Source: an uncultured Gammaproteobacteria bacterium
GTDB taxonomy: Bacteria > Pseudomonadota > Gammaproteobacteria > UBA9214
DNA length: 64,000 bases
Direction: 5' to 3'
Assembly (NCBI GenBank): GCA_963773065.1
Contig: CAVYZN010000026.1
Location: 46,672-110,671 of the forward strand
Part shown: positions 7,047 to 59,243 of the stretch, one piece after another
Position numbering within the stretch: position 1 is the first letter of the stretch
Layout of the letters: each line of letters begins with the position of its first letter
The notes under the pieces: model-generated
Databases searched by the model: none
The model's input: only the letters and a program-made list of their open reading frames with translations
What the model was told of the DNA's origin: nothing
Made by a program: the position numbers and the translations under genes

Positions 7047-7134
7047 TGGCGCATCGTATCAGCGACGCATCGCGGAGGTCCATGCCCCGAGCGGTCTCTC
7101 ATCTTCGCGCGGCGGCGTCGGTGACTGGAAAAAT

Positions 7135-7197
7135 GGGTCAAAGCCCTTATTCTTTGGAGTCAGAAAACAGAAAAGGCAAGAAAAGGGCTTTGATCCC
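7135..7197. repeat. Inverted repeat / REP-like hairpin
   Basis: GGGTCAAAGCCCTT ... AAGGGCTTTGATCCC. Confidence 0.6.
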
Positions 7198-7337
7198 TTT
7201 TTCGCACGGCCACTGTGACCGTTCCCATTGGTTTGGGCATGTAACAATCGTCGGATGAGGGCACGGATTCGTGCCGGCCGGTTTACGAGCTGGCGTTATG
7301 CGAGTATCCCGGATTCCCGGTTAAAACGAGCGGTGCT

Positions 7338-40330: not shown

Positions 40331-40764
40331 GTCTCGGGTTCACCCGCCGCACCATTCTCGCCGGCCTGGCCGCCGGCGTGGCCGGTGTCGCCATCGGCCT
40401 GCGCCTTTACTGGACCGGTGGCAGCGCCGCGCGCGACGCCCAACGGCTCGCGGGATTGCTAAGGCACGCGGACAGCGCGGCCCCGCTCGGCCGGCTCTAC
40501 CTGGCCGGAGCCCCGCGGGAAGCCGATCCGGCACGGCTGGTGGCGCTGATCGGCGCGGCGCAGGGCCCGGCGTTGACACCGATCTCCGCGGCCACGGACG
40601 AGGACTTGCGCGCCGGCCTGGAGGAGCGCATCCGCATCAACTTCACCAGCGGCGCCAGGGTCGCGGTCGGCGGCTGGTTGCTGTCAATCACCGAGGCGCG
40701 CCTGTGCGCCCTGGTCAGCCTGGAGCGGCCAGTATCCGAGACCCCGGTGAGTAACGCGGGCTAG
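40327..40764 (+). CDS. Tat-signal small protein, probable GMC partner subunit
   Basis: FTRRTILAG twin-arginine motif; GWLLSITEARLCAL; ATGA overlap. Confidence 0.7.
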   Translation: MSLGFTRRTILAGLAAGVAGVAIGLRLYWTGGSAARDAQRLAGLLRHADSAAPLGRLYLAGAPREADPARLVALIGAAQGPALTPISAATDEDLRAGLEERIRINFTSGARVAVGGWLLSITEARLCALVSLERPVSETPVSNAG

Positions 40765-43146: not shown

Positions 43147-43461
43147 TCACGCCGCCACCTCAAGCAACACTTCAGGGTGACGCTCGGCGATCTTGAGCAG
43201 GGTTTTTGCGGCGCCCGACGGCTCGCGCCGGCCCTGCTCCCACTGTTCGAGGGTGCGCTTCGAAACGCCAAGGGCTGCTGCGAACTGCGCTTGGGAGAGC
43301 CCGCTCTTCAGCCGCACGCGAACGACGTGAGATTTCGGCTCCACTTTGGTGCGTTTGCCTCCGCCCGCCTTGATCTCTCGTACGCCGTCCAGGACTTCTT
43401 GCCACACATCGCGCCCGGCCTCGAACTTGGCCAACGCCTTTCCAGTAAGCTTCTTACCCAT
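43147..43461 (-). CDS. HigA-like XRE HTH antitoxin
   Basis: GLSQAQFAAALGVSKRTLEQWEQGRREPSG. Confidence 0.88.
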   Translation of the reverse strand: MGKKLTGKALAKFEAGRDVWQEVLDGVREIKAGGGKRTKVEPKSHVVRVRLKSGLSQAQFAAALGVSKRTLEQWEQGRREPSGAAKTLLKIAERHPEVLLEVAA

Positions 43462-43768
43462 TTCGGAATACCTCTAGCAACTGCCTCAGAATAGGCGCCG
43501 GGACGGCGTCATGCTTGGCCTTGGCATAGATCGTCAACATCCAGAATTCATTCGGTTGGTACCGTACGAAATAGATGACTCTCAGCCCGCCACGTTTGCC
43601 CATACCCGGCCGCGCCCAACGTAGTTTCCGAACCCCACCCGAGCCGGGAACGACCTGTCCGGACTCTGGGTTCTGCATCATGAACTGCTGCAGTTCGGCG
43701 TACTCATCGTCGTCCAGGTATACGGGAAGAACCCGTTCGAATGCGGACGATTCAATGAACGTGAACAT
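43454..43768 (-). CDS. HigB/RelE-family toxin
   Basis: FIESS.F, PGSGGVRKLRW, GKRGGLRVIY, LTIYAK. Confidence 0.88.
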   Translation of the reverse strand: MFTFIESSAFERVLPVYLDDDEYAELQQFMMQNPESGQVVPGSGGVRKLRWARPGMGKRGGLRVIYFVRYQPNEFWMLTIYAKAKHDAVPAPILRQLLEVFRNG

Positions 43769-43778
43769 CGAAGCAACA

Positions 43779-43795
43779 ATACGCCATTGGCGTAT
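43779..43795. promoter_or_regulatory. Palindromic operator of the higBA module
   Basis: ATACGCCA-T-TGGCGTAT about 10 nt upstream of the toxin ATG. Confidence 0.6.
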
Positions 43796-43814
43796 AGTAA
43801 TCAACATCGCCTCC

Positions 43815-43894
43815 CAAGTATCTTCCGTACGCCGGCTGTAATGCCGAACCCGGTTTGCAGCACGCACTTGATCGAGAAGGCGGGGTGTGGTCAT
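43815..43894 (-). pseudogene. intI: Integron integrase N-terminal fragment
   Basis: MTTPRLLDQVRAANRVRHYSRRTEDT matches the IntI N-terminal signature; GGAGG RBS. Confidence 0.8.
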
Positions 43895-44067
43895 ATGAGC
43901 CTCCATGCTCCATTTGTTTTTTCCATTAGGCGCCCTTTCAGGAGCCCAAGTCCTTGGTTCCATTCAGGACAGCATGATGATGGAGCCCAAATGCGCTGTT
44001 TACAATGGCGCTTTTCGGCTCCCCAATTGTAGTTGAACTAAACCGCTTCGCGATAAAGCCACGCAGT

Positions 44068-44090
44068 GCCCAGAAACTTGAACGTTAGAC
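44068..44090 (+). other. Putative attI site
   Basis: GCCCAGAAACTTGAAC-GTTAGAC (GTTRRRY core) upstream of and divergent from intI, 30 nt before the cassette ATG. Confidence 0.6.
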
Positions 44091-44119
44091 CGCCATCGCC
44101 AAGTGTGGAGTGCTGACAG

Positions 44120-45159
44120 ATGTCAACCGACGCATACTTTGACACGCGCAATCTTGCCCCGCCAATGGGCGACTAGGTGGCTGCCCTGTGTCCGGTTGCG
44201 CCACGCATCTTGGGAAAGCGGATAGCCAGTGGGGTGAGATGCCTTACTGTCCGGTGCATCGCATTAGGATCCACGCGGGAACTCGGACTTTCGTCTATTA
44301 CAACGGTCCGGATGAAACCTCGAAGCGTAATGCGGCCCTGCGAAATATCTTGTTCGAACGCAACTATTTCAAAGAGCACATCCTGGGTAACTCAGCTAAA
44401 GCCGAAACACATCGGATTTGCCACGAAACCAGTGAAGATGCTCTGACCTGGAATGTGTTCTCTCGACTAGCAAGCGGCGGGTTTCTTCCAATGCTGTTAT
44501 CCACGTTCACACACTTATCGTTGAAGAACGAGCCTGAACTGTACCTGTGGGGCCTTAAAGTCCGTCTTCATGATTCGTCCGCCCCTTCATTGTTTCCTGC
44601 TCTAAAAAGCGCCCGCGGCATCTTCGAAAATGGCATCGCGAAGTTCTTGACTGAGCCGGACATCATGTTATATGTGCCAGGGCAGTTGCTCGTCCTCGTG
44701 GAGGCCAAGTTCACTTCTGGCAACACCATCGCTTCGACCAGCGCAACCCACGATGTCGCCGACGAGAAGCCGAAGTCGCGTGAGGGCATTTTAGGACGAT
44801 ACACACCCACTGCACTGCCACGCGATGCGCTGCTCGCACCGTCATCCTCGGGGCCTTTTTATTCGCAGTTATACCGCAATCTGGTGTTCGCAATCTACAT
44901 GGCGAACAAGTTAGACGTAAGGTGGGTACTAGTTAACCTTGTGTGCGAAGGGCATTTTCACCAACGACAACACAAGGTCGAATTTCAAGATCCGACGCAA
45001 TTTATTCACGCGCTCCTTCCTGAAAAGTCACGTAATCAATTTCTTTTCTACTGGGAACGGCTCTATGCCGATCATGTTGTGAAAGTGACGGAACTGAAAG
45101 ACCTTGCCGAGTACATGTACAACAAGTCTGCCAATGGAGTTAGAGCACTTGCTGTTTAG
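44120..45159 (+). CDS. Cassette gene: Cys/His-rich N-terminus plus PD-(D/E)xK nuclease-like domain, frameshift near 44160
   Basis: CPVSGC..CPVH; SEDALTWNVF, TEPDI, VEAKF, YSQLYRN; low GC. Confidence 0.65.
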
Positions 45160-45199
45160 TGGCGGGCTATCCACCCGCTCAATACGGACGCGAATAATC

Positions 45200-45278
45200 G
45201 GGGACAGATCACGGATTTCGCGGCTGTGCCAAGGAAAAGGGGGACAGACCACGTTTTTAGTCAAAACGTGATCTGTCC
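45200..45278. repeat. GGGGACAGA(T/C)CACG REP-like cluster
   Basis: Two direct copies and one inverted copy (AAAACGTGATCTGTCC). Confidence 0.65.
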
Positions 45279-45348
45279 GTACACCTAGTTTCAATAAAAA
45301 CGTCGCAAAAAGGGATTTATATATCCCCCCTTAATCCAGAATCTTCTT

Positions 45349-45549
45349 TTACCGTCCCGCCTCGATCAACTCGATGTCCTTCTTGAGTAGTTCGTTGACC
45401 AGGTCGGAGAGATCCACCCCCCGGGCCTCGGCCTTCTTGGCGAGATAATCCTCGACGTCCTCGTCGAGATACACCGGCAACTTGAAGACGGACTCGGGTT
45501 TATAGAACTTTCCGCGCTCGCCCTTGGAAAAATCATACCGTGACTTCAT
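45349..45549 (-). CDS. BrnA-like antitoxin
   Basis: YDFSKGERGKFY, VYLDEDV..YL; downstream of BrnT. Confidence 0.75.
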   Translation of the reverse strand: MKSRYDFSKGERGKFYKPESVFKLPVYLDEDVEDYLAKKAEARGVDLSDLVNELLKKDIELIEAGR

Positions 45550-45566
45550 GGCATCACCTTTAGCCG

Positions 45567-45878
45567 CTAGCGCGGCGCCTGTTCGTAGTCACGGATCTCC
45601 CGGCGGTCCGCTTCGCGTGCCGAGATGATCCGTATATGTATCTCCGTCTCATCTGTCTGTGTAAATGTGTGAATCACCACCAGGTATTGCCCGCCAGGCG
45701 TGCGCCCGAGCGTCACCCAGCGCTCTTCATCCTCGCTGTGCTCATCGTCGTAGATACTCAGCGCCAGCGGATCGCGAAACACCGCAGTGGCCGTTCGAAA
45801 CGATACACCGTGCTTTCGTAGGTTGGTCCGGGCCTTCCCCGCGTCCCACTCGAAATGATAGACGACTTTGGCGCTCAC
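45567..45878 (-). CDS. BrnT-family toxin
   Basis: FEWDAGKARTNLRKHGVSF, EERWVTLG, IRIISAR. Confidence 0.9.
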   Translation of the reverse strand: MSAKVVYHFEWDAGKARTNLRKHGVSFRTATAVFRDPLALSIYDDEHSEDEERWVTLGRTPGGQYLVVIHTFTQTDETEIHIRIISAREADRREIRDYEQAPR

Positions 45879-45956
45879 GTAGCTGTTATCCCGCCTTGCT
45901 CAGAAACGCCTCAATCGTAGCAGGAAAAGGGAAATTAAGAATCAAACGTGATCAAT

Positions 45957-46150
45957 GGGGTCATACTCGATTGATTTTGCAGCATTTGGTAAAAATTCCA
46001 GTTGAGTGTTTAACATCTTGCTGAAAAATCAATCGCACGTTCGATGGTGTCAGACTTCATTGAAACGTATGCGGGATTGAGCGAAGTCAACGGGGTCAGT
46101 CTCGATTGATCGATAGGGAGATGCAGATCCGGTCAATCGAGTCTGAACCC
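45957..46150. repeat. GGGGTCAnnCTCGATTGA REP-like cluster
   Basis: Direct copies at 45957 and 46092, inverted TCAATCGAGTCTGAACCC near 46133-46150. Confidence 0.6.
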
Positions 46151-46205
46151 ATTGATAGCTTCTTTATACCATCCTGCCATCGCTGCCGTCGTGCCTCTTT
46201 GCGGG

Positions 46206-47377
46206 CTAGAAATCGATGGTGACCTGCCCGCCAAACTGATTGGCCTTGTGCAGCTCCCGATCCCCGGAACTCTCACCCAGGCCCCGCTTGAAGGTAGCGC
46301 GCAGATACTCGAGGGTAAGACTCGCCTTTTTCAGAAACCGCCAGGAAACGGCCGCGCCCCCTCTTAGATGCGGAGCGTCTTCGACTTCATTGCTTCCTTC
46401 CAGGCGCAGGGACCACTGAAATCGTTGCGGGGGTAATAGGCCAATTCGACATTCCAGGCGCGGGCCTGTTACGGTCGGCTTCGAGTTCCGAGAAAGAACC
46501 CAGGGCGCGCACAAACTCGGCCGTGACCTCAAATGGATCGAAGCCCGCGATGACATTGGCGCTCAATCCGCCCACGCCGTTTTCGTAGCGATCATTGCTG
46601 TCCCTCAGGAATCCCTCCTTCGAGTCCGCAGATCGGACAGAGAACTGATGCCGAAGGAACCGATTTCATTTGGCGATCCCTCGAGGGCGAAGCCCCAGTC
46701 CAGGCTGTCGCCATCGGACCCGGACTTATCGGCACGCCCCTGGTAGACAAACGCCAACACATCCAGTCGATCATCGGGTCCGTAAGACAGCGTCATCCCG
46801 TCGGTCTGTGTTTCCCCGAATCCCAGTATCGGACCACTCACAAAATGGCTGTAATACACGCCGAACGGCATATACTGCCTGCCGAGGCGAGTTCGAAATG
46901 GCCGGCCTCGAAGGCGGCGTAGGCTTCGTCCAGGGTATGTTTGTTCGCCGCATCATCGTACTCGTAGAGCAACTCGCCTTTCACCCAGACCAGGGCGTCA
47001 GTTCCAGACCCGCCAGGAGCGTCTTGAAAAATCATCCCCGCTGGTATGCCCGGAAGCATCGTAGAGACTGGAGCGCTGATAGAGGTATTCAAACTCGACC
47101 AGTCCGGAGACGGCGAGCCAGTCGCTAAGCTCATATTTCAGCCCGGCATCCCGCCTTCCTGGGGCTCTTGTAGACGCGAACCTGTCTCCGGCGCCTCTTC
47201 GTGGATGACTCCCTCCTGGGCGCTCGCGCACAGGGGCGCCGCAAGCGCCGCGAGGACAGCCGTAACCCGGCGGGCGGGAATGCGCGCCAACCGTTTTGAT
47301 GGGCGCTTCCGCGGGCCGCCGCGCATGGAGGACGCGTCGAGGTATCCAGCCAGCCAGGCGCCGGCTCTGTCATTCAC
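46206..47377 (-). CDS. LbtU-like outer-membrane porin, multiply frameshifted
   Basis: Fragments VSGLVEFE, ELLYEYD..LDEA, PFGVYYSHFVSGP..FGET, VGGLSA, SLTLEYL and C-terminal QVTIDF. Confidence 0.65.
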
Positions 47378-47436
47378 GGTTTAACTTCCCCTTGCAACTC
47401 TAACCCCCGTTCATCTCCTCATCACATTTTCTAAAC

Positions 47437-47452
47437 CTTTCCAAAAGGTAAT
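47437..47452. promoter_or_regulatory. Degenerate ATTAC-N6-GTAAT-type box
   Basis: CTTTC-CAAAAG-GTAAT; shares CCAAAnGGTAATGT with 56050-56067. Confidence 0.5.
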
Positions 47453-47558
47453 GTTCAGGAAAGTTTGCTGCAATCATCTTATGTTACGTTAATGAACAAT
47501 AATGAAAGGGGTGGCACGATCGCGTCAAACAATCCACAAACAATCCAAAGGAGGAGCT

Positions 47559-48579
47559 ATGACCAAGAAACGCCTACTCGCACACTGGCGTTCGGCTTCG
47601 TGGTTGTCATGTGTGGCGCGTTCGCGGTAACGAGCGGCGCCCAGACCGGCGACACTGCACGCAGACGGCGGACACGCTGCTCGATGCATGCAAGGCGAGC
47701 GTCATGGACGATGGCGCCGTTGGGAAGGCCGTCTGCATCAACATCACCGACACGAAGGCTCGAAACACCTGCCTCGACATCACGCGAACTCCCAGGATGA
47801 GGCTAACACGCTCTGCGAGGGCCAACATGACACCCGTCTTGCTGCTTGCGGGGTGCTCGGGGAAGGTCGCTACGACCCCGATTTCAGACCGGCCCGCTTC
47901 GACAACCCCAGGCGTCCGTCGAACCGAATCCTTATTTCCCCCTCGGGGTTGGCGAGCACTGGGAATACCGCAGCGCCACGCAAGTTGACATCGTGGATGT
48001 CGGAACGAGACGAAACTGATCGCGGGCGTAACCTGTATCGTGTTCCGGGATCAGGTGTTTGAGGACGGTCTGATCCATGAGGCCACAAATGACTGGTATG
48101 TTCCGGCCAAGGACGGCAGCGTCCGGTACTTCGGCGAGGAGACCAAGGATTTCGAGACCTTCACGGGCGACAAACCGTTGAAACCGGAGACTCGTCAGCA
48201 TCGATGGCTCCTTCAAGGCCGGTCGTGACGGCGATAAGCCGGGCATCATCGCCCTGGCGTCGCCGCAGGTGGGCGATGCCTACCTCTAGCAGCTTTCGGT
48301 GGGTAACGCCGAGGACGTGACCGAAATCCTGTCCACACGTACTCCTACGGTCACGACGCGGTGCTCGACTAGGGAGGCCCCCGGGGAACTGGCGCAACGT
48401 TCTGCGCCGGCAACTGCGTCGTCACCAAGAACTACTCGCTGCTGGAGCCCGGGCTGTTCCGCGCGCAAGTATTACGCCCGCGGCGTCGGCACCATCCTCG
48501 AAGTGGAAAACACGGGAGAGGTCGTCCAGCTTGTCAATTGCAATTTCGATAATCGGTGCGCAAACCTTCCCATGCCTGA
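47559..48579 (+). CDS. Secreted 6-Cys hypothetical protein (paralog A), frameshifts and a TAG near 48287
   Basis: Cys-rich helical N-domain; TNDWYVPAKDGSVRYFGE, KPGII, GNAEDV, KYYARGVG. Confidence 0.65.
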
Positions 48580-48607
48580 AGGGCTTTCATTCTTCCTATA
48601 CACACCT

Positions 48608-51600
48608 TCACCGGGGGACACGCAGCAGCCGCAGCACGGCTGGCAGAACGACGAGAACCATGGGAAGTTGGGCGATCAGCCCGGCGATAATAGCGATGGC
48701 CAGCGGTTGCTGCATCGCCGAGCCCAGACCCAGCGCCAGCGGCAGCAGCGCGAGGATCGCGGCAACGTGGTCATCGTGATCGCCCGCATCCGGTTGACGC
48801 CGGCGGCGAAATCGCGGGTCGCTGCCTGTTCGTCGGGCAACCCGGCAAACTCCGAGTAGTAGAAGATGGCCACTTCCGTCACGATGCCGACGATCATGGT
48901 CATGCCCATGATCGAGGTGATGTTCAGCTCGGTATCCGTGAGCCACAAACCCATGAACACTGCCGCCTGCACCAGCATCGTGTAAGCAGCATGGCCACCG
49001 CGACCCGCAGGCTCTCGTAGAGGAACAGCAGCAGCAGGAACACCAGCGCGCTGGCGGCGATGATGACCACCAGCAGGCCGCGGAAGGCGATCTGCTGCTG
49101 CTCGTACAGTCCGCCCAGGCGGTAGGTGCGCCCGCCGGCATCATGCCCGGAGCTGCAGCACCGCCTGCACGTCGCGGACGGTGGAGCCCAGGTCGCGGCC
49201 GCTGATGCGGGCGGTCACCGCCACCATGCGCTTCAGGTCTTCGCGGGTGATCTCGGGTTGCCCGGTCACGGTCTGCAGCGCCGCCACACGCTTCAGCGGG
49301 AACAGGTGGCCATTGGGTGCCCGCAGCAGTAATTCATCCAGATCCGGCACCGTGGCCCGCTGGTCCTTGGCGGATCCAGACGCGCACCCCAACCAGTTTC
49401 GGGCCGCGAGGAATCTGCGTGGTGACGTTGCCCGTCAGCAGGTCGTTCAGCAGCCGGGTGATCGCGTCGGGGTCGATGCCCTCCAGGGCGGCCTTGACGC
49501 GATCCACCTTGATGTCCAGAGCGTCGCCGGCCAGGACGATGCCGCTCTTGACCTCCTCGACCCCATCGACCTTCTTGATGCCTTCGGCGACGGCCTGGGC
49601 GGTGCTTTCCAGAGTCTTGGCGATCGTCAGAGAAAAGATTCACCTCGATAGGCTGCGGGACGGCGGTGAGGTCGCCGATCAGGTCTTCCATGAGTTGGAG
49701 CGATCTCGATCTCGAGCCCCGGCACCGTGTGCTCCACGCGCCGTGCGCACGTCGTCCATGACCTCTTCGATGCGGACGGCGCGGGCAGGGGCTTGAGGCG
49801 GACGAAGAGGTCGCCGGTATTGGCTTCGGTGAGCCCGCCGCCCAACTGCAGACCGGTGCGACGGGAGTAGGTCTGCACCTCGGGCGTGTCCCGGAGGATG
49901 GCCTCGACCTGCCGCAGCAGCCGGTCGGTTTCCGTCAGCGACGTGCCGGGCGGGGCGATGTAGTCGAGGATGAAGCCGCCCTCGTCCATCACCGGCATGA
50001 AGCCGGAGCCCAGCGTTTTGATAGGCAAGATAACCCAGACCGACCAGCGGAATGATCACGAGGGCAATCAACCACGGCCGCGGCAGCAGTCGGCGCATCA
50101 GCCTGGCGTAGAGCCGGTGCGCCACCCGCGTCACCGAGCCGCCCTCCTCCTGCTCGGCATCCTTCGGCCCCAGCAGATGGGCCGCGAGGACGGGGATCGC
50201 CAGCCATGCGACGAGGAAGGAGATGACCAGGCTGACGGCCATGGTCAGCGACAGGGCCTTGAAGAACGCGCCGGTCACGCCGGTGAGAAACGCAAGCGGG
50301 TGCGAAGATGATGATGGTGGAGGCGGAAGACCCGATCAGCGGCCGGGTGAACTCGGCCGGCGGCCCGCATCACCCGGTCGCTTGCCGGCGCCGCTTCCGC
50401 TGCGCAGCCGGCGGATGATGTGCTCCACGATCACGATGGCGTCGTCGATGATCAGCCCCACGGCGGCCGCCATGCCCCCCAGCGTCATGATGTTGAAGCT
50501 CATGTGCAGCACGTAGAGCAGCAGCACCGTGGCGGCCAGCACGGCCGGCACCGCCAGCGTGGCGATCAGCGTCATCTTCCAGTTGCGCAGGAACAGCAGC
50601 AGCACCAGCGCCGCCAGCCCCACGCCGATCAGCACCGCATCGCGGACGCTGCCGGCCGAGGCGAGGATCAGGTCGCTCTGGTCATACCAGTTGGCCATGC
50701 GGATGTCCGCCGGCAGGCGATGGCGGGCCTCGTCCAGCTTGGCCTTGACCTCCCGGGCGATCTGCACGGTGTTGCCGTCGGGCTGCTGGAAGACCTGGAA
50801 GAGCACGGCGTTGCGCCCGTCGGCGGTGACGCGGGTGAAGTCGCGGGGCGGTGTCCTTGCGCACCGTGGCCACGTCCTCCAGGCGGACCACGCCGTCGGT
50901 CCCGGAGCGCAGCACGGTCTGGCTAATCTGGTCCAGGCTGGCGATCTGGGTATCGGAGATGACCAGGTAGAGCTTGCCGTGATCTTCCACCCGCCCGACG
51001 GCCGTCAGCACGTTGGCCGCCGAGATGCCCGTCGCCACGTCGCCGAGGGTCATGCCCAGCGACTGCAGCTTGGCCGGGTTCGACGACCACGCGGTACTCC
51101 TCGACGGCGCCGCCCTGGACATCGACCTTGGCGACACCGCTGACCGTCGACAGGAGCGGGCGCAGCTCATAGGAGCCAGGTCGCGCAGCTCCACCAGCGA
51201 ATGCGTAGTGGAGGTGAGGCTGTAGGCGATGACCGGGAAAACCGTCGGGTCCATCCGCTTCACTTCGAAGCCGGTGCCGGCCGGCAGCGTGGGAGTCAAC
51301 TTGGCGATCTGCGATTCGGCCTGGAGCATCGCGGCGATCATGTCCTGGCCCCAGTCGAAGTTGACCGAGATGTCGGCGCTGCCGCGGCTGGTGGTGGAAC
51401 GGACGTTACGCACGCCGGGAATGGCCCGCAGCGCCTGTTCGATGGGGTAGGTAACCTCCAGCGCCATGCGCTCGGCGGGCTGGTCCCCCGCCTCTACCTC
51501 CACCCGGATGCGCGGGAAGCCCACCTCGGGGAACAACGCCACCGGCAATCCCCAGCCGCTGACCAGCCCGCCGATCGACAGGACGGCCATCAGGAACAGG

Positions 51601-51641
51601 ATGGAGCGGACGTGGCTGTGCGTCCAGGAGAGGAAACTCAT
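48608..51641 (-). CDS. RND efflux permease (CusA/CzcA/AcrB family), multiply frameshifted
   Basis: PVALFPEV.FP, PIEQAL, FNIMTLGG.AAAVGLIIDDAIVIVE, MDEGGF, RAITMT, QPLAIAIIAGL. Confidence 0.85.
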
Positions 51642-52747
51642 CGACCCGCTTCCTCGGTCACGGCCATGCCGTTTTCCAACTCGTAGTTCCCCACGACCAC
51701 CGCGCGCTGGCCATCCTTGAGATCGTCGCCGCGCACGGCCACCATCTTGGCGTTCTGCAGCCCCAGGTCCACCGTGTGCTTGACCGCATGGTCATGCTCG
51801 ATGGTGTAAAGGGTGTAGCCCCCATCCTCGGGAAGCACCGCCTCACGCGGGACCACGAGCGAGTGTTCCGAAGCGATAGCCAGTTGCCCGCGCACATACT
51901 GATCCAGCAGCAGCCTGGCATCGGAAGGCAGGGACACGAAGGCATCGACCAGGCGGGTATCGGGATTCACCCGCTGGGTGACCAGGCGCAGTAGCCCGGT
52001 CATCGCGTCCGAGGAGCCTCGCTCGGCGGCGAACAGAGAGACCGGTTGGTCAACCTGCAAATGGGCGACATCCTCCGGCTCGATGCCCAGCTTGACCTCA
52101 ATCCGCTTGTCGGCCGCCAGTTCCACCAGCGCTCCACCGGCCGGTACGATCTGCCCCTCCTGCACGTCCACCTTGCTGACGACCCCAGCCAGGTCCGCGG
52201 TCAGGTGCGGCGGCGACGCAATCCCCCGCTTCTCCAGGTTCGCGAGCTTGATCTGCGCCGATTGAAGGTCCTGCTGCGCCTGGAACAGCTCCTGATTGGT
52301 GGCCAGGCGTTGGTCGAAACGCTGCTTGACCTGTTGGAACTGCTTGCTCGCTGCTGCGACGCCGTGTTGCGCCTCCTCCCACTGCAACTGCGTGTCCGGG
52401 CTGGCATCAGCCTCCACCAGGGCGGTGCCGGCGGACACCGGCTGCCCCGCCACCGCCGCCACATGCACCACCCGGCACTCAAAGGGCACCGAGATCACCC
52501 GCACCTCGCCGGGCTGCGAGATCACCGTGCCATAGGCGGTGAGCGTCTGGTGAATGGTCGCTTGCGTGATCGCCACGGTGCGCACGGACACCACCGGGTG
52601 ATCGGCGGCCGCGGGCTGGCTCTCGGCATCCTCCGTGGCAGGTGTTGCCCGGGATGGCAAGCCGCCGGCCTGCCTCCAGAGGTAGCCGGCACACAAAGCC
52701 ACGGGAACCGCAACGATCAGCAGGCTGTGGCCAATCCAGCGTTTCAT
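51638..52747 (-). CDS. RND periplasmic adaptor subunit
   Basis: Lipoyl halves, alpha-hairpin, VNPDTR, VVPREAV. Confidence 0.9.
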   Translation of the reverse strand: MKRWIGHSLLIVAVPVALCAGYLWRQAGGLPSRATPATEDAESQPAAADHPVVSVRTVAITQATIHQTLTAYGTVISQPGEVRVISVPFECRVVHVAAVAGQPVSAGTALVEADASPDTQLQWEEAQHGVAAASKQFQQVKQRFDQRLATNQELFQAQQDLQSAQIKLANLEKRGIASPPHLTADLAGVVSKVDVQEGQIVPAGGALVELAADKRIEVKLGIEPEDVAHLQVDQPVSLFAAERGSSDAMTGLLRLVTQRVNPDTRLVDAFVSLPSDARLLLDQYVRGQLAIASEHSLVVPREAVLPEDGGYTLYTIEHDHAVKHTVDLGLQNAKMVAVRGDDLKDGQRAVVVGNYELENGMAVTEEAGR

Positions 52748-54159
52748 GGTAAGGACTCCGTTGTCGAGGGACGGGTCGCGGGCGAGGGTAAATCATCAGG
52801 CAGGTACTGCCCGGCGGCGATCTCCAGCGCGATCCGGTTCTGCACCAACTGCTGTTTCAATTTCAGCAGGTCCAGCCGCTTCTGCGCCAGGTTGCCGATC
52901 GCCGTGTAGTAGCTGAGGACATCGGCGTTGCCCCGGTCCAGGGCATCGCGGTACGTGCCGACCAGCCGCTCCAGACTGGGAATGGCGGATTCGGCGGAGG
53001 CGATCTGCTCCGTCAACGAACGGATATCAGTCAGACTCATGGCGATCTGCGCTCTCGCCTCGAAGACTCGGTTGAGGTATTCGTCATAGAGTTTCTGGCG
53101 GGTAGCCCGCTCGGTGGCGATGCCGCCCTGGTTGCGGTCGAAGATCGGCAGGTCGATGCTGACGCCCAAGCCTGTGGTGTGGACGTTGCTGGTGTCGCTG
53201 GCGCGATTGAAACCGAGGTTGATCTTCGGGAACTGGGCCAGCACGGCGGCCCGAAGCGTCTCCTCCTGGCTCTCATATCCGCGTTTGAGCGCCTGCAGGT
53301 CAAGCCGCCGGTCCTCCATCGCTGCGACGAGTTGCTGCTCCGACGGGAGGCGCACCCGGGAGGGCAATGCCACACTCGGCTCGGGCCGCACGGCTGCGTC
53401 CGGCGGCAGGCCCAGGGAGTTGTTCAACACCAACTGCTGGTGGCGCAGATCCCGCAGCAGGCCCAGCAGAACGGCATGAGCGTCCTGGCCGGCGGTTTCC
53501 GCGGCGGCCAGGTCCACCACCGTCTTCTGATGCTGCTCCACGGCCAGCCGCAGGATCGCCAGATTCTCTGCCAAGTTGTGATCCACCCGTTCCGCCTGGG
53601 CTACCTGCGCCTGCAGTGCCACCAGGTCGAACAGCGCCGTCCTGGCGGCCTGCGCCACCTGCCATTCCTGCCAGGCCACCTCCAGATCGACGGAGGCTGC
53701 CTGCGTCGCGGCCGCCGCTTGCCTGGCCCCGTGAGTGATCAGCGAGGTGACATCCCAATTGAGCCCGACGTTGTAGCCGTTGACGGTCCCCGCATCGTTG
53801 CCGCCGGTGGGAACATCCAGCGCCGCGCTCAACTGCGGGTTGGGCAGGATGCCGGCCGTCAGCAGTTGCGCCGAGGCCAGGGCGCGGCGGTCACGCTCGG
53901 CCCGCAGCGAGGGGTTGACCAGGACCGCCAGCACCGCCGCCTCATCCGGCGACAAGCCGTTGCGGTAATCCAGGACAAGGGGCTGCAGCAGGGGATGGCG
54001 GATGTCCCGCCCACGGACTCGCAGCACATCATCGGGAGGGACCGCCAGGTCGCGGTTCACCGCCCCGGGAATGAGGGGCGCCGGCCGGTAGGACTGACAA
54101 CCCGCCACGCAGGCGAGCGACAGCAGCAGGAAGCAGGGCCATGATCTGATGACGTTCAC
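52744..54159 (-). CDS. TolC-family outer-membrane lipoprotein
   Basis: Lipobox VAGC, NPSLRA, LPNPQL, IDLPIFDRNQG. Confidence 0.9.
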   Translation of the reverse strand: MNVIRSWPCFLLLSLACVAGCQSYRPAPLIPGAVNRDLAVPPDDVLRVRGRDIRHPLLQPLVLDYRNGLSPDEAAVLAVLVNPSLRAERDRRALASAQLLTAGILPNPQLSAALDVPTGGNDAGTVNGYNVGLNWDVTSLITHGARQAAAATQAASVDLEVAWQEWQVAQAARTALFDLVALQAQVAQAERVDHNLAENLAILRLAVEQHQKTVVDLAAAETAGQDAHAVLLGLLRDLRHQQLVLNNSLGLPPDAAVRPEPSVALPSRVRLPSEQQLVAAMEDRRLDLQALKRGYESQEETLRAAVLAQFPKINLGFNRASDTSNVHTTGLGVSIDLPIFDRNQGGIATERATRQKLYDEYLNRVFEARAQIAMSLTDIRSLTEQIASAESAIPSLERLVGTYRDALDRGNADVLSYYTAIGNLAQKRLDLLKLKQQLVQNRIALEIAAGQYLPDDLPSPATRPSTTESLP

Positions 54160-54330
54160 TTGGAATGGTCAGGCCAGAGCCAGCGGCCTGCCCCGGACCT
54201 TTCTCACAATCATCCCGCTGACCTCCGGGAATGCCGTTGTGTGGCACGGCGGCATGATTTGCCGACGTAACGGCGGCTCCAATCGATCCCGCGTCAACAG
54301 GGGCAGGCTGACAAACCGGTACTTCATGGG

Positions 54331-54726
54331 TCATCCCTGTCGGTTCATTAATCCCTTGATCCGCTGGCCGGCCCAGTCACGGAACCGCCCAGCCACCGCG
54401 CGGTGCGATTCCCAACTGCCGATATAGCCGCGTCCCGGATGCCGCAGCGGACGATAGAACAGCACCTGCCGGCACAGGCCCACTTTGTGAAACTGGGCGG
54501 CGACATTGATCACCCGGTCTTCCCGGCTCTGGAGCGAGATGCAATAGACGCCATCGAGGAACGACCAGTCCAGCGCCTCGGCGTCCCCGATGGTGCCGTT
54601 GCAGTACGGACAGGACGGATCGGGTGGACAGGCGTGAAATACCGGCTCCTCGCGAACCGGTGTCCCGGGTTCCGGTTCTGCTTGTACTTGCAGGCTGTTC
54701 ATCATCATCGAGAGTAGAAGGGACAT
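54331..54726 (-). pseudogene. Glycosyltransferase family 25-like N-terminal fragment
   Basis: VYCISLQSREDR..GSWESHRAV; truncated relative to GT25. Confidence 0.5.
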
Positions 54727-54869
54727 GCTGCATTTCAGGCATCGGCCTGTTGCCTTACCGGCATCGTGAATCCCACGATGCCGGTCCGCCGGGGAAAAAT
54801 GATTACGGTTGCCCCGGCATACTTCTGCTCCAGCGTCAGGCCGGCGATGGACCCGGGGATAGGTACTCC

Positions 54870-55944
54870 TCAGGGAGCGGGGGTAAACTCGACCAGCTCC
54901 TCCCGGAACGTGGGATCGTTGTCATCCAGTGTCACGATCACACCGACGTTGGGCGCATAAAACTTGCTCTCGCTCTTATCGGGCTCGATCGGGCTGTACT
55001 CGTGGGTCTTGAGGCAGTTCCCTGTACAGCTCGCCACGGCGGGCCCGGCTTGGGGTACGGACTCCGTCTCCGTCATGCTCAGGTTCTCGGCGACGTCCTC
55101 CGCATCGCCCAGCAACCACTCCTGGCGATACACATCACCGACGGTGAAAACCGCCGGCATGACAATCCCGGGTTTGGCCCCGTCGACACCGGTTTCCCAG
55201 GCACCCTCGATGCTGATCAGCAGGTTGTCCGGATTGGTCGCCAAGGTATTCTCGCCGAAGTACCAGACGTTGCCGGCCACGTCCTGCGCATACCAGTCGA
55301 TGGTGTTTTCGGTGGTGTTACCGCCGACCTCGACCACGTCGGTCACGGCGACAACCGGGACGTTCTGGATTTTCGTCGTATGATCGGTGACCGTGACGGT
55401 AATGGTCTCGCCCGCCGTGCTTGTTATAGACCCACTTCGTTCCTTTTTTCAGCGGGAAATAGGTATTGCCGACGATTTGATCGGCGGGGACGAAGTTATT
55501 GGGATCGATCGGCGGGTCATAGGGACCACCGCCCATGGTCAATGCGCCGCAGAGCTCGAGACGCGCATCGCGGACATCTCTACAGTGCGATTTGTCGTCC
55601 TGGCGCGTCGAATTGGCATCCGCCAGGCACGTGGCCTTTTCGTTCGCGTCCGTCAGATTCAGGCACTTGGCCTGCGCGATCAGATAGTTATCCTTCACGT
55701 CATTGCCGCAGGCATTGTAGGCGATTTGGGAAGTCTGCGAGCACACCCCTCCTTGACCTGCCTGGCCCTGGTGACCATCCTGGCCCTTGTGACCATCCTG
55801 GCCCTGTGACCCTCCTGGCCTTGGCCGTGAGCCGCGGCGTCAGTCGCGCCGAAAGCCGCACCACCGGCGAGTAAGACCACAATGGCTAGTATCCAGCGAT
55901 GTCCGGACCGGACCCGCTGTATTAAATGTTTTTTTCTTCATCAT
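54870..55944 (-). CDS. Secreted 6-Cys hypothetical protein (paralog B) with His-containing repeats, frameshifted
   Basis: Signal peptide, (GQDGHK)-like repeats, six Cys, NTYFPL, TIDWYAQDVAGNVWYFGE, AKPGIVM, KFYAPNVG. Confidence 0.75.
55749..55820 (-). repeat. 18-bp tandem repeat, about 4 copies
   Basis: GGCCAGGATGGTCACAAG-like units on the minus strand; one copy lacks 1 nt. Confidence 0.75.
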
Positions 55945-56049
55945 TGATTTAATCTCCAGCATTGATTGAAAAGGTAACTCTGTGCCAGAACTCATCGCTG
56001 CATTAAACTATACTATAGCAAACCGGCCGCACTCCAACATGTCCGAATC

Positions 56050-56065
56050 ATTACCAAATGGTAAT
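56050..56065. promoter_or_regulatory. CzcR-type response-regulator box
   Basis: ATTAC-CAAATG-GTAAT palindrome between paralog B and the two-component system. Confidence 0.7.
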
Positions 56066-56100
56066 GTCTCCCCGGTACCATCCGGTTATGCTTAGCCAGC

Positions 56101-56778
56101 ATGCATATCCTGCTGATTGAAGACGATGTTCTGGCCGCTGAATACCTGGTAAAAGGATTCGGCGAGTGTGGCCACGTCGTCGACCACGCGGCCGACGGCA
56201 AGATCGGCCTGAATATTGCGCTAAACGGTCACTACGACGTCATCGTCGTCGACCGCATGCTGCCTCGTCGCGACGGTCTGACGATTATCCGCATGCTGCG
56301 GGCGGACCGGAACCAGACGCCGGCGTTGGTGCTGTCGGCGCTCGGCGAGGTGGATGATCGTGTCGAGGGACTGCGGGCGGGATGCGATGACTACCTGGTC
56401 AAGCCCTATGCCTTCAGCGAACTGCTGGCGCGACTGGATGCCCTGGCCCGGCGCAACCAACCGGCGGGGCAGCAACAGTACCTGCAGATGGCCGACCTGG
56501 TGATCGACAGGCAAAACCAGACGGTCAAACGCGCCGGCAGACTCATCCACTTGCAGCCCCGCGAGTTCCGTCTGTTGGAATACCTGATGCGCAATGCGGG
56601 ACGGATGGTGACGCGCACCATGCTGCTCGAACATGTATGGGATTTCAATTTCGATCCGCAGACCAACGTGATCGACGTGCAGATCAGCCGCCTGCGCGGC
56701 AAGATAGACAAGGGCTTCGGCGTGTCTCTGTTGCATACCGTCCGCGGCGCGGGGTACATACTGAGTGAATCTCTCTAG
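56101..56778 (+). CDS. Heavy-metal-type OmpR-family response regulator (CusR/CzcR-like)
   Basis: VDRMLP, KPYAFSELLAR, TRTMLLEHVWDFNFDPQTNVIDV, TVRGAGY. Confidence 0.93.
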   Translation: MHILLIEDDVLAAEYLVKGFGECGHVVDHAADGKIGLNIALNGHYDVIVVDRMLPRRDGLTIIRMLRADRNQTPALVLSALGEVDDRVEGLRAGCDDYLVKPYAFSELLARLDALARRNQPAGQQQYLQMADLVIDRQNQTVKRAGRLIHLQPREFRLLEYLMRNAGRMVTRTMLLEHVWDFNFDPQTNVIDVQISRLRGKIDKGFGVSLLHTVRGAGYILSESL

Positions 56779-58162
56779 GCTGTTCCGAACGACGGCGGTA
56801 AGGCTGGCACTGCGCTACGCGCTGGTCTACGCCGGCGTGATGGGTCTGTTGCTGGCGGCGCTGTTCTGGACGAGCAGCCGCTACGTCGATTCACAACTGG
56901 AGGCCGGACTCGAACAGGAATTGTTTTCGCTCGCCTCGAAGTTCGGAAGCGGGGGCCCGCAGCACTTGGCGGAGGCGGTCTCGCAACGTGAAGAACATGG
57001 CCTGGAGGAGGGCCGGTATTACCTGCTGGTCGGTCGCGATGGCGCCAGAATCGCCGGCAATCTGTTCGCCTGGCCGCCCGACAGCAATATCCCCTTCGAC
57101 GGCAAGGTGCACAGCGTCTGGGTGGAGGACGATGTCATTCCGGGCACACAATACGACGATGACGCCTACTGGCCCGTGATCGCCCGGGAGCTGCCGGACG
57201 GCAGCCGTCTGTTGCTCGCCCGCAGCGTTCGACACGCGGAGGATCTGCAGGAGTTTACGCTGTATCTGATGGTGTTCATCCTGGCCGTGGCCGTGCTGCT
57301 GGCACTGGCCATGGGCATGACGCTGGGCCGAGCGATACTCGGGCGCATGGACACCATCAGCCACACCGCGGGCGACATCATGGCGGGCGATCTGTCGCAA
57401 CGCATTCGGGTTAGTAACAGTGATGATGAATTTAATGCCCTAGCAAAGCGTCTCAATGCGATGCTGGATCGCATTCAGCATCTCATCAAGGGGATCCGCG
57501 AAGTAACCGACAACGTGGCGCATGATCTGCGCAGTCCGCTCAGCCGCTTGCGCAACCACCTGGAGATTACGCTGCTGGAGGGGCGCAGCGAAGAGGAATA
57601 TCGCCAGGCCATCGGCAAAACGATCGAGGATGCCGAATTACTGATCAAGACCTTTAACGCCATGCTCGGCATCGCGCAGGTGGAATCGGGTAATCACCGT
57701 ACGCCGTGGGGCCGTGTCGATCTGAACACGCTCGCCGCCGATCTCGAGGAACTCTACAAGCCGGTTGCCGGGCTGAAGGGACAGCAATTCATACTGGTGA
57801 CGGGCGAACCCGCGGAAATCACCGGCAGTCGTGATCTGCTCGCGCAGGCGATCGGCAACCTCCTGGATAACGCAATCAAGTACACGCCGGAAGGCGGAGC
57901 GATAATACTGGGGGTCAAACGGCTGGAAGAGGCCACCGAGGTGATGGTGCGTGATTCCGGCGCGGGCATACCCGCGGCGGAACGGGAGCACGTGCTGGAG
58001 CGTTTCGTCCGTCTCGAGAGTTCACGCCATACTCCGGGCAATGGTCTGGGACTGAGTCTGGTAAAGGCCGTAGCCCGCTTGCACGGCGCCGAGCTGCGGC
58101 TGGGTGACGCCGGCCCTGGGCTCACCGTTACCCTGCGGTTCCCGCACACCCGGGTTGGCTAA
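56765..58162 (+). CDS. Sensor histidine kinase
   Basis: Two TM segments, HAMP, NVAHDLRSPL, NLLDNAIKY, GNGLGL. Confidence 0.93.
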   Translation: MNLSRLFRTTAVRLALRYALVYAGVMGLLLAALFWTSSRYVDSQLEAGLEQELFSLASKFGSGGPQHLAEAVSQREEHGLEEGRYYLLVGRDGARIAGNLFAWPPDSNIPFDGKVHSVWVEDDVIPGTQYDDDAYWPVIARELPDGSRLLLARSVRHAEDLQEFTLYLMVFILAVAVLLALAMGMTLGRAILGRMDTISHTAGDIMAGDLSQRIRVSNSDDEFNALAKRLNAMLDRIQHLIKGIREVTDNVAHDLRSPLSRLRNHLEITLLEGRSEEEYRQAIGKTIEDAELLIKTFNAMLGIAQVESGNHRTPWGRVDLNTLAADLEELYKPVAGLKGQQFILVTGEPAEITGSRDLLAQAIGNLLDNAIKYTPEGGAIILGVKRLEEATEVMVRDSGAGIPAAEREHVLERFVRLESSRHTPGNGLGLSLVKAVARLHGAELRLGDAGPGLTVTLRFPHTRVG

Positions 58163-58218: not shown

Positions 58219-58338
58219 AAATAAGGGTAATAAAAAAACTGGAGTACATCGGACACCCGGTATATATTTCCGGCGTCAGCAGGGGTTGCAACCGCACCCC
58301 GCGTGGTTGAACAGGAACAACGTATCGAGAGGATCAAG

Positions 58339-58698
58339 ATGGACAAGAAGACGACACCACCCACGAAGAAGACAGTTGCACCGAAAACCGCACCACCCGC
58401 AGCGACTGCTTCGAGGACACCTGAAGCTCCCCCGCGGAAGACCGCCGCACCGACCCCCAAACCTGCCGCGGCGAGTCCCGCAGAGAAACCGGCTCCGGCC
58501 AAGAAGGCCGCCAAGGCGGCAACCCCGACGACAGTTCCCTCCGTCACTCCCGAAGAGCGCTGGCAGATGATTTCAGTGGAGGCCTATTACCTGGCCGAGA
58601 AGCGCGGTTTCGTCGGTGGCGATCCTTGTCATGATTGGCTTCAGGCGGAAGCCCAGGTCGAGGCCATGCTCAAGAAACGCGGCGCCGCCCGCAGATAA
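58339..58698 (+). CDS. DUF2934-domain protein with K/A/P/T-rich N-terminus
   Basis: ERWQMISVEAYYLAEKRGF..DWLQAE. Confidence 0.85.
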   Translation: MDKKTTPPTKKTVAPKTAPPAATASRTPEAPPRKTAAPTPKPAAASPAEKPAPAKKAAKAATPTTVPSVTPEERWQMISVEAYYLAEKRGFVGGDPCHDWLQAEAQVEAMLKKRGAARR

Positions 58699-58834
58699 TA
58701 GTCGCCGCAGCGATAGCTCGGCCCGCCATTTCTCACGGGAATCCCGGCGCTGACGGGTCTTGACTCGCGGACGTCCCGAGTCGTGCCGCCGTCATTGCGA
58801 AGGCAGGTGGGAAATTCTTGTCAGCGAGGTGCCT

Positions 58835-59243
58835 ATGAACGATTACCTGACTTCGAACACCCTGAGTGACACCGGCAAGCTCATCCTGCGAGCTGACCCT
58901 TGGTATCCTGATACTGTTCCATGGCGTGGGCAAAATCCTGCAGGGAATCGATCCGATCCAGGGCATGGTGTCGGGCATGGGACTCCCCGGCTTCCTGGCC
59001 TATGGCGTTTACCTGGGTGAAGTGCTGGGGCCGGTGCTCCTCGTGCTCGGCTTCCATGCGCGGATCGGCGCCGGACTGATCGCCATCAACATGGTCGTCG
59101 CCATCCTGCTGGCGCACACCGGTGACCTCTTGAGCCTCAGCCCGCAGGGCGGGTGGCGGCTGGAGCTGCAGGGCATGTTTCTCGCCACCGCGCTGGCACT
59201 CGTGCTCATCGGCCCCGGTCGGTTCAGCATCAACCAGCGCTGA
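58835..59243 (+). CDS. DoxX-family membrane protein, frameshift near 58890
   Basis: GKLILR / LTLGILILFHG, AYGVYLGE, GGWRLELQ, GPGRFS. Confidence 0.85.

Follow-up and report, generated by a model that had tools for sequence, protein, structure and literature searches.

We examined a 64,000-nucleotide stretch of DNA from an uncultured gammaproteobacterium (contig CAVYZN010000026.1, positions 46,672 to 110,671; hereafter the window), in which two paralogs (A and B) of a secreted protein family lie among an LbtU-like outer-membrane porin gene, a two-component system and a tripartite efflux operon encoding an outer-membrane efflux factor (OMF), a membrane-fusion or adaptor protein (MFP) and a resistance-nodulation-division (RND) pump (Table 1). 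An earlier note on this DNA had listed all of these elements, and each is present at or near the place it had been assigned. Paralog A is divergent from the porin gene, and paralog B from the regulator and kinase genes. We propose, with about as much confidence as doubt, that the locus is one version of a conserved module, in which a sensor system and its secreted target stand beside an outer-membrane gate, the role of the secreted protein being to capture a small cargo or pass it on, with a metal or metal chelate as the most likely cargo. Envelope transport modules under two-component control are a familiar kind of system; the accessory protein family, with its size, its conserved link to an operator and its interchangeable use of an LbtU porin or a FecIR/TonB set, is undescribed as far as word searches and database names show.

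The source genome (G000 among our handles for genomes, loci, proteins and contigs) is metagenome-assembled, with 3.84 Mb in 33 contigs, a completeness of 91% and a contamination of 6%. Protein families were assigned with Pfam and NCBIfam profiles at their curated cut-offs, and among the window proteins the adaptor, the OMF, the first RND fragment, the regulator and the kinase gave Pfam matches. Behind the promoter of paralog B, the paralog itself, a gene remnant and the OMF, MFP and RND genes follow head to tail on a single strand. We found no convincing terminator between paralog B, the remnant and the pump operon, and a consensus scan for promoters and terminators returned sites no more numerous than in shuffled sequence. 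Paralog B and the pump genes may be transcribed together.

Table 1. Features of the locus, in positions of the window.
Feature	Position	Strand	Remarks
LbtU-like outer-membrane porin	46206..~47326	-	Broken; readable signal peptide near 47326; identified by homology to a G010 protein
Box-like site CCTTTCCAAAAGGTAATG	47436..47453		Between porin and paralog A; 2 mismatches to the half-sites
Paralog A of the secreted family	47559..~48560	+	Heavily frameshifted, end approximate; three-frame reading and tblastn
RND inner-membrane pump	48608..51641	-	In pieces over all three frames; Pfam ACR_tran
Membrane-fusion (adaptor) protein, MFP	51638..52747	-	369 aa, intact; HlyD_D23, HlyD_3
Outer-membrane efflux factor (OMF, TolC-like)	52744..54159	-	471 aa, intact; Pfam OEP
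Glycosyltransferase-25-like (GT25-like) gene remnant	54331..54726	-	131 codons; blastx; only about the first 140 residues kept
Paralog B of the secreted family	54870..55944	-	3 frame breaks; intact orthologs in G002, G003 and G010
18-bp tandem repeat	55761..55824	-	3.6 copies, 89% matches; inside paralog B
Perfect palindromic box CATTACCAAATGGTAATG	56049..56066		Between paralog B and the regulator gene
OmpR-type response regulator, CusR/CopR/HprR clade	56101..56778	+	225 aa; Response_reg and Trans_reg_C
Sensor histidine kinase	56765..58162	+	465 aa; HAMP, HisKA, HATPase_c; periplasmic domain

A large family of secreted proteins

The intact ortholog of paralog B in genome G003 (P0001, 338 aa) served as stand-in query for the family. 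Paralog B is 71% identical to this protein over the 192 aligned C-terminal positions and 54% identical over the N-terminal part, and it forms one clade with its G002 and G003 counterparts in a tree of 81 family proteins (support 100). Read across three frames, paralog A, whose ATG is preceded by a GGAGG ribosome-binding site, carries a signal peptide, six cysteines and the motifs YDP..NPYFPL, DWY..DG.V.YFGE, KPGI, AEDV and KYYARGVG, and tblastn places it at 27-45% identity to intact family members. The motifs and architecture that the earlier note had read in the two paralogs agree with our alignment of 41 members.

Of 8000 candidates scored in a word-indexed search, 5473 were family proteins at E ≤ 0.001; wherever a source had named one of the 120 best homologs listed, the name was 'hypothetical protein'. 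Searched exhaustively with a profile, a set of 1.84 billion representatives yielded 7152, 4833 and 1796 clusters (50% identity) at E ≤ 1e-3, 1e-10 and 1e-30, respectively, many of which carry 2-6 tandem copies of the C-terminal domain. Neither the window paralog pieces nor P0001 matched any Pfam or NCBIfam profile, no model existing for the family; these names and searches uphold the view of the earlier note that the paralogs belong to an uncharacterized family. A word search of the literature, which cannot find a protein by its sequence, likewise returned no description of it. In species genomes we confirmed at least 593 family stretches, of which 80 were kept and gave 75 loci, nearly all from metagenome bins. 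These loci span Gamma- and Alphaproteobacteria, Acidobacteriota, Binatia, Planctomycetota, Verrucomicrobiota, Nitrospirota, Methylomirabilota, Bacteroidota and others, and the family as a whole was found in at least a dozen phyla.

Across the 41 aligned members, the six cysteines of the N-terminal domain and two of the C-terminal domain vary little or not at all, seven acidic residues (E192, D196, E211, E256, E263, D264 and E306) are invariant, and several aromatic and glycine positions are also conserved. We read the architecture as a Sec signal peptide, a six-cysteine helical domain and an acidic, beta-rich domain that appears remotely DUF3108-like; the six near-invariant cysteines probably form three disulfides. 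The signal peptides of the window paralogs, judged by eye, are of the Sec type and have no lipobox. Directly after its signal peptide, paralog B has a Gly/His/Gln/Asp hexapeptide repeat, encoded by the 18-bp tandem repeat and absent from the G002 and G003 orthologs; its histidines may be taken as a small hint of metal binding.

The ESM Atlas model of P0001 has a predicted template-modeling (TM) score of 0.80, and stand-alone proteins some 230-310 aa long match its C-terminal domain (residues 118-338) in superpositions at TM 0.89-0.91. In one cluster superposing at TM 0.89, 21% of members carry PF21347 (DUF3108_like), a family present in 1 of 121 genomes of the class. With a cut-off of 27 bits, this profile is passed by P0127 (42.2) and P0142 (36.1), with P0226 (24.8) and the long form at L059 (19.7) below it, and the PF21347 proteins of genome G112 share the YFPL..W.Y start and YAPGVG end motifs with the family. 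We regard the C-terminal domain as a remote and unproven relative of the DUF3108-like proteins. A profile search of PDB sequences, with HasA among the structures covered, found no relative; its best match (cGAS, E 0.14) we take as chance.

Some members carry further domains. Among 38 members, mostly long and picked for their length or extra domains, 5 have repeats-in-toxin (RTX) repeats, 2 a type IX secretion system (T9SS) sorting domain, 1 an FlgD_ig domain and several an fn3, Ig or lamin-tail domain, and these fusions argue for a function of the family domain at the cell surface or extracellularly as well. The very long members (P0121, P0123, P0143, P0193, P0215, P0218 and others; up to 1729 aa) have 2-6 tandem C-terminal domains fused to RTX repeats or to lamin-tail, fn3, Big_5 or CarboxypepD_reg domains. 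The source genome itself holds a third family copy (G000:C1, ~39950-40650; L011, ~6960-7653) that consists of a signal peptide and C-terminal domain only, lacks the six-cysteine domain, is 43% identical to paralog B and changes frame twice within about 40 bp.

A CusR/HprR-type box at the promoter of paralog B

The regulator has clear receiver and DNA-binding domains (Response_reg, 81.4 bits; Trans_reg_C, 91 bits), and its best NCBIfam match among 91 families is TIGR01387, the heavy-metal response regulators, at a score below that family's cut-off. The same family is the best match of all three distant family-linked regulators that we scored, at 259-266 bits and thus just under the cut-off. The kinase is closest to the heavy-metal kinases of TIGR01386, a profile that covers residues 148-460 only, the cytoplasmic part; its periplasmic sensor domain can be aligned with those of family-linked kinases across phyla.

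In the intergenic region between paralog B and the regulator gene lies the palindrome CATTACCAAATGGTAATG, the single exact match to this box in the 3.84-Mb genome. The E. coli hiuH-hprR intergenic region is described as holding a box shared by CusR and HprR, CATTACAAAATTGTAATG (PMC9302797), and compared with that box the window site has identical half-sites and an equal spacer (CATTAC-N6-GTAATG). At up to 2 mismatches the window holds 4 matches against 0.89 expected, a number reached by 1 of 100 shuffles. The earlier note had proposed a related box in both divergent promoters, and we find one in each: the site at paralog B is perfect, and the site at paralog A (CCTTTCCAAAAGGTAATG) has 2 mismatches and, while not significant by count, is supported by its position. 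Its centre lies about 115 bp from the ATG of paralog A, as against about 113 bp at paralog B and at the G003 ortholog, and its intact half-site is gene-proximal, in the same orientation as at paralog B. We give this positional agreement modest weight.

The box recurs beside family genes elsewhere. In 79 other loci (1.29 Mb) we found 14 matches at no more than 1 mismatch, in 11 loci, where our composition-based estimate of the chance expectation is about 1. For 12 of the 14, in 10 of the 79 loci, the adjoining genes are family, porin or regulator genes, with the site directly upstream of them or between them, and the box-bearing loci include members of the Nitrospirota, Binatia and Arenicellales. 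In G002 a second perfect box (L008:12745) precedes the genes running into the pump operon. Taken together, the sequences make it very likely that paralog B is a direct target of the neighboring CusR/HprR-type regulator. Across the source genome the box occurs once exactly and three times with one mismatch, against about 2.7 expected by composition, and with a count so near expectation no further members of the regulon can be claimed. One of the one-mismatch sites, CTTTACAACAGTGTAATG, lies about 55 bp upstream of a porin start on another contig (G000:C8, ~262500-264900; L089, 993-3405), where two general porins of the GSEDLGNGLKA type stand in tandem, one of them frame-broken; by our estimate this site is compatible with chance.

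Outer-membrane gates beside family genes

We compared the neighbors of the family gene across the 75 loci, where genes were called crudely (longest open reading frames, greedy choice, labeled genes first) and Pfam scans took the two nearest unlabeled neighbors per side (195 proteins plus a few extras). In 30 of the 75 loci the family gene has a regulator or kinase related to those of the window no more than 3 kb away, and in 18 it has both; a regulator at least 40% identical to that of the window is present in 17. An LbtU porin occurs in 9 loci, all 9 of which have a two-component system. The earlier note had suggested looking for co-occurrence with two-component, LbtU and RND genes, and genes of the first two kinds recur beside the family; RND genes, in 6 of the 75 loci, are near chance by our rough estimate.

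The translation of the window porin is 43% identical over 325 positions to a protein of G010 (L009:10013-11113), and it takes the name LbtU from that homolog, since its own four broken fragments gave no match to the profile of the LbtU family siderophore porins (NF033652, cut-off 90 bits). That cut-off is passed by the porins beside family genes in G010 (116.5), G002 (98.2), L014 (152.1) and L069 (112.1). G010 is a complete genome from another genus of the same family, in which kinase and regulator genes are followed by the family gene and porin and then by housekeeping genes, with no pump.

Other loci have a different gate. In about 9-12 of the 75, an extracytoplasmic function (ECF) sigma factor, FecR and/or a TonB receptor adjoins the family gene, with a full or nearly full set at L012, L015, L028, L031, L036, L045 and L059 and a partial set at L023, L024, L064 and L071 (and at L067, by clustering only). 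In a quick maximum-likelihood tree of the 81 family proteins, L045 (ECF/TonB) is sister to L048 (two-component) with support 96, and the groups L028/L056 and L021/L028/L031 mix contexts with support 99. Because the contexts are interleaved on the tree, the same kind of protein appears to serve either type of gate and sensor. At two loci of Acidobacteriota (L016, 3680-4729; L024, 8741-9706) a calcineurin-like metallophosphoesterase gene lies directly upstream of the family gene, and at L024 two very large TonB-like OMP_b-brl_4 barrels follow downstream.

A proposed capture or hand-off module

In the mechanism we propose, the phosphorylated regulator would activate the family gene by binding the CATTAC-N6-GTAATG box, which lies about 113 bp ahead of the start codon. 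The secreted protein would then act outside the cytoplasm, capturing or handing off a small cargo, for which a metal ion or metal chelate is the most likely candidate, and the cargo would cross the outer membrane through a dedicated gate, for which we predict the LbtU-type porin at this locus and, in other lineages, a TonB-dependent transducer. Alternatively, an RND pump may carry the cargo out in some lineages. A metal link is plausible in view of the best match of the regulator to TIGR01387, the LbtU and FecIR/TonB neighbors and two distant CusA/CzcA-type operons that include a family gene. More boldly, and only as a tentative suggestion that is rather unlikely to hold in full, the family could be a new, hemophore-like class of protein shuttle for a non-heme metal or metal chelate, with two kinds of gate, a TonB transducer with ECF sigma factor and FecR or an LbtU porin with a CusR/HprR-type system, and with export to the surface by type I or type IX secretion, or wiring to a heavy-metal RND pump, in some lineages.

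Several observations weigh against the proposed module. The alignment of 41 members has no conserved histidine and one conserved methionine, a scarcity that would argue against the Cu(I)/Ag(I) chemistry usual for this regulator clade, and the acidic and aromatic residues that are conserved would be just as compatible with an enzyme or a sugar-binding protein. The two-component system, which the earlier note called CusR/CzcR-like, does find its best NCBIfam matches in heavy-metal families, but both proteins fall under the curated cut-offs (regulator, 244.2 against 279.2 bits; kinase, 204.6 against 292.55 bits), and across 19 aligned kinases the sensor domain has no conserved His, Met or Cys. 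The box at paralog A, with its two mismatches, is at chance level by count. The context in 32 of the 81 tree rows is 'other', that is, by our criteria without a two-component, ECF/TonB or heavy-metal-efflux (HME) RND neighbor. As for the C-terminal domain, P0001 and the window pieces gave no match to PF21347, 1 of the 41 aligned members reached E 0.037, and hhalign of a single PF21347 sequence against the family returned a probability of 11.9% with E 0.0025.

The same neighborhoods could point to another role for the secreted protein, which we consider unlikely, namely that of a co-sensor or feedback modulator. CpxP modulates CpxA, and ZraP modulates ZraS; here a periplasmic partner of the kinase would bind the signal or report the state of the envelope while also being the main product of the regulon. 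Regulator, kinase and family gene do lie on one strand with no other obvious target at L014, L026, L033, L042, L046, L049, L069 and L080, and kinase sensor domains that align across phyla yet have no conserved His, Met or Cys may leave the reading of the signal to a partner. However, close relatives of the protein sit with ECF sigma/FecR/TonB sets instead of a kinase or inside RND operons, other members are multi-domain proteins with RTX repeats or T9SS export, and many have no signaling gene nearby. These contexts and forms argue that the family domain has a job independent of this kinase.

The pump

In the earlier note the pump had been taken for an HME-RND pump, with the paralogs as a periplasmic metal chaperone or sink co-regulated with it and the porin. 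The adaptor passes TIGR01730 (121.6 against a cut-off of 94.9) and is 79% identical to its G002 counterpart, and the OMF is 84% identical to that of G002, with no NCBIfam model reaching its cut-off. The RND ortholog of G002 scores 446.9 on TIGR00914 (CusA/CzcA), well short of the cut-off of 701.45, and 532.7 on the multidrug model RND_permease_2; the three window fragments behave alike (66.5, 18.2 and 79.9 against 99.3, 28.8 and 121.3, respectively). We rejected the assignment to the HME class on these scores. An RND gene is present in 6 of the 75 loci, within 5 kb of the family gene in 4, and by rough estimate this is about chance level.

Two of these arrangements are nonetheless suggestive of a chaperone or sink feeding its neighbor in the manner of CusF, an explanation that we find improbable. 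At L074 the order is OMF, adaptor, family gene and RND, at L049 it is regulator, kinase, family gene, OMF, adaptor and RND, and both RNDs pass the CusA/CzcA model (793 and 717, respectively, against 701). At L028 and L056, RND genes 56-57% identical to the window pump type lie 6-7 kb from the family gene; in the window paralog B and the pump stand in series behind the box, and in G002 the second perfect box stands upstream of the genes leading into the pump operon. On the other side are the rarity of RND genes, a G010 locus with two-component system, family gene and porin but no pump nearby, a window pump that is not of the HME type, and a protein of about 300 residues in two domains, unlike the known small chaperones and with no conserved His or Met cluster. 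With no conserved histidine and one conserved methionine, a CusF-like soft-metal site is unlikely.

Of the proposed chaperone or sink, then, the metal link stays plausible, and the pump type, the RND count and the residue pattern count against the remainder. As for co-regulation, paralog B is very likely a target of the regulator and the pump genes lie in series behind it; the box on the side of paralog A is weak by count. Export of ferric siderophores from the periplasm is a further reported activity of RND pumps (PMC10760861), and a pump beside a siderophore-type porin therefore need not mean efflux of metal ions.

Broken reading frames

Each of four genes (porin, paralog A, RND and paralog B) is distributed over several reading frames; the adaptor, OMF, regulator and kinase genes are whole. 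The one-frame alignment of the porin contains 4 stops, plus a short out-of-frame stretch, the tblastn alignments of paralog A fall in 2 frames with 1-5 stops per alignment, and paralog B is broken in its signal peptide, in its repeat and near 55410-55420. Its orthologs have intact frames in G003 (an open frame of 361 aa), G002 (363 aa) and G010 (344 aa). The RND ortholog of G002 is intact as well, at 1011 aa, and the window pieces that align to it fall in 3 frames.

We compared positions 46200-56100 with short-read contigs from four public soil or sediment runs. Coverage was best with X1 and X2, which account for 0.32 and 0.21 of the sampled words; X3 and X4, with shares of 0.07 and 0.06 of the stretch, served only as extra indel witnesses. 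The X1 and X2 contigs are 90-99% alike to the window and differ from it by single-base indels exactly over the broken genes. We list 12 well-supported indels, 11 in the RND gene and 1 in paralog A, and 9 of the 12 are extra bases in the window. In the soil contig records there are 9 gaps in 622 bases over the porin gene and 7 gaps over the 5' end of paralog B, and none in the 6 listed records that lie wholly within the MFP and OMF genes (4 of them from X1 and X2).

These comparisons suggest that the frame breaks are most likely patchy consensus errors of this assembly, since the relatives and the short-read soil contigs lack the indels. Two findings weigh against such errors: the indels do not lie in homopolymers, and the cover by open reading frames (ORFs) falls to 0.20 in the 5-kb bin 43330-48330, against a genome median of 0.73, which places this bin among the 11 lowest of 751. 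A uniform, genome-wide sequencing error we rejected, as ORF cover is normal genome-wide and the indels lie outside homopolymers.

The breaks could also be real, in which case the porin, both paralogs and the pump would be pseudogenes and the system described here would be nonfunctional in this strain. We hold such a dead locus to be quite unlikely, even though the breaks cluster in just these genes and spare the MFP, OMF, regulator and kinase, the porin alignment has in-frame stops, and the indels fall outside homopolymers in a genome with normal ORF cover. Decay would have to account for very many single-base indels at merely 1-6% base divergence from related soil contigs, for several independent runs that agree with each other against the window, and for frame-broken genes met by chance on two other contigs (the family copy on C1 and the porin on C8). 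The preponderance of extra bases in the window also speaks against it, extra bases being an error pattern of long-read consensus.

Surroundings of the locus

To the left of the porin lie a 323-aa ORF (44188-45159) with a weak restriction-endonuclease-like match (PF22558, E 8e-4, below cut-off) and a BrnT toxin gene (45567-45878; PF04365, E 1.4e-27), and the G+C content there is 0.52-0.57, compared with 0.67 in the pump. The segment with the porin and paralog A had no DNA match in the 4 other genomes of the genus. The region around these two genes may be the edge of an acquired island. Downstream of the kinase (58303-59243) are genes for a DUF2934 protein with a Pro/Ala/Lys-rich N-terminus and for a DoxX membrane protein.

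The GT25-like remnant between paralog B and the pump operon matched no Pfam or NCBIfam family and resembles two full copies in G002 in their N-terminal parts, at 71-78% identity (blastx). There the interval between the paralog B ortholog and the pump operon holds two full GT25-like genes, an LptF/G-like permease gene and an ICMT/PEMT-like methyltransferase gene (L008, 10771-15667). The remnant of the window is a hybrid N-terminal piece and looks like the product of a deletion between the two copies.

That the family instead handles envelope lipids or glycans in an envelope-stress response, with the beta domain as a LolA/DUF3108-like half-barrel for a hydrophobic or glycan ligand, seems very unlikely to us, for although there are weak Pfam hints (DUF3108_like, DUF6134 and ependymin, which we take to share a LolA-like clan), lipid- and glycan-related genes in the G002 interval just described, glycosyltransferases adjoining the family gene at L029, L050 and L060, and DUF4390 (L037), DUF1329/LolA_like (L062) and DUF4412 (L058) neighbors, such neighbors are scattered, each in one or few loci, and the recurrent partners are uptake gates and their sensors.

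Implications

A family of more than 7000 clusters, without a domain model or a named member, gains three handles from this locus: a conserved operator that belongs to a well-studied clade of regulators, a group of defined partners, namely LbtU-type porins, FecIR/TonB sets and, in some loci, CusA/CzcA pumps, and a number of conserved acidic residues that lend themselves to mutation. This opens its function to direct tests. Should a metal or metallophore prove to be the cargo, envelope metal traffic would have to be annotated differently in many bacteria of soils and sediments, and LbtU-type porins, which so far are known from a single Legionella siderophore system, would gain a widespread context. 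If the shuttle reading is true, the family would be among the largest metal-trafficking families still undescribed.

Comparison with known systems

The regulatory half of the locus resembles E. coli CusRS and HprRS (YedWV), with an OmpR-type regulator and a HAMP/HisKA kinase, and with a box of identical half-sites and spacing in the divergent promoter beside the regulator gene (PMC9302797). The window regulator and kinase differ from these systems in scoring under the heavy-metal family cut-offs, and the periplasmic domain of the kinase is unmatched by TIGR01386 and lacks conserved His, Met or Cys. The target differs too, being an unrelated secreted protein and a porin, not cusCFBA or hiuH-msrPQ.

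The site of CusF, the chaperone encoded within cusCFBA, is built from Met and His. Family genes resemble cusF in position, lying at L074 and L049 inside or directly ahead of a CusA/CzcA-type tripartite operon and in the window in series with the RND operon. In sequence there is no relation, the window pieces, P0001 and the 41 aligned members giving no Pfam or NCBIfam match to a known chaperone family; the family protein has about three times the size of CusF, two domains, probable disulfides and a conserved acidic core, and most members have no pump nearby.

The C-terminal domain can be set beside the PF21347 (DUF3108_like) proteins, to which it is linked by the superposition of its model (TM 0.89), by P0127 and P0142 passing the cut-off and by the common YFPL..W.Y and YAPGVG motifs. 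The match covers only the last 50 or so profile positions, and the DUF3108-like proteins that we saw have no six-cysteine helical domain.

On the side of the gate, LbtU of Legionella is described as a TonB-independent receptor essential for the use of legiobactin (PMC8891985). The porins beside family genes in G010, G002, L014 and L069 resemble it in passing NF033652. The window differs from the Legionella system in that no siderophore synthesis or lbt genes were seen in it, and in that its porin is paired with a two-component system and a secreted protein.

HasA-type hemophores and Fec-type cell-surface signaling offer a further parallel. An ECF sigma factor, a FecR-like anti-sigma factor and a TonB receptor adjoin a secreted, binding-type protein in about 9-12 of the 75 loci, and some family members have RTX repeats for type I secretion. 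To HasA the PDB profile search showed no sequence relation. The version of the module found in the window differs in having only a Sec signal and a porin, and no TonB receptor.

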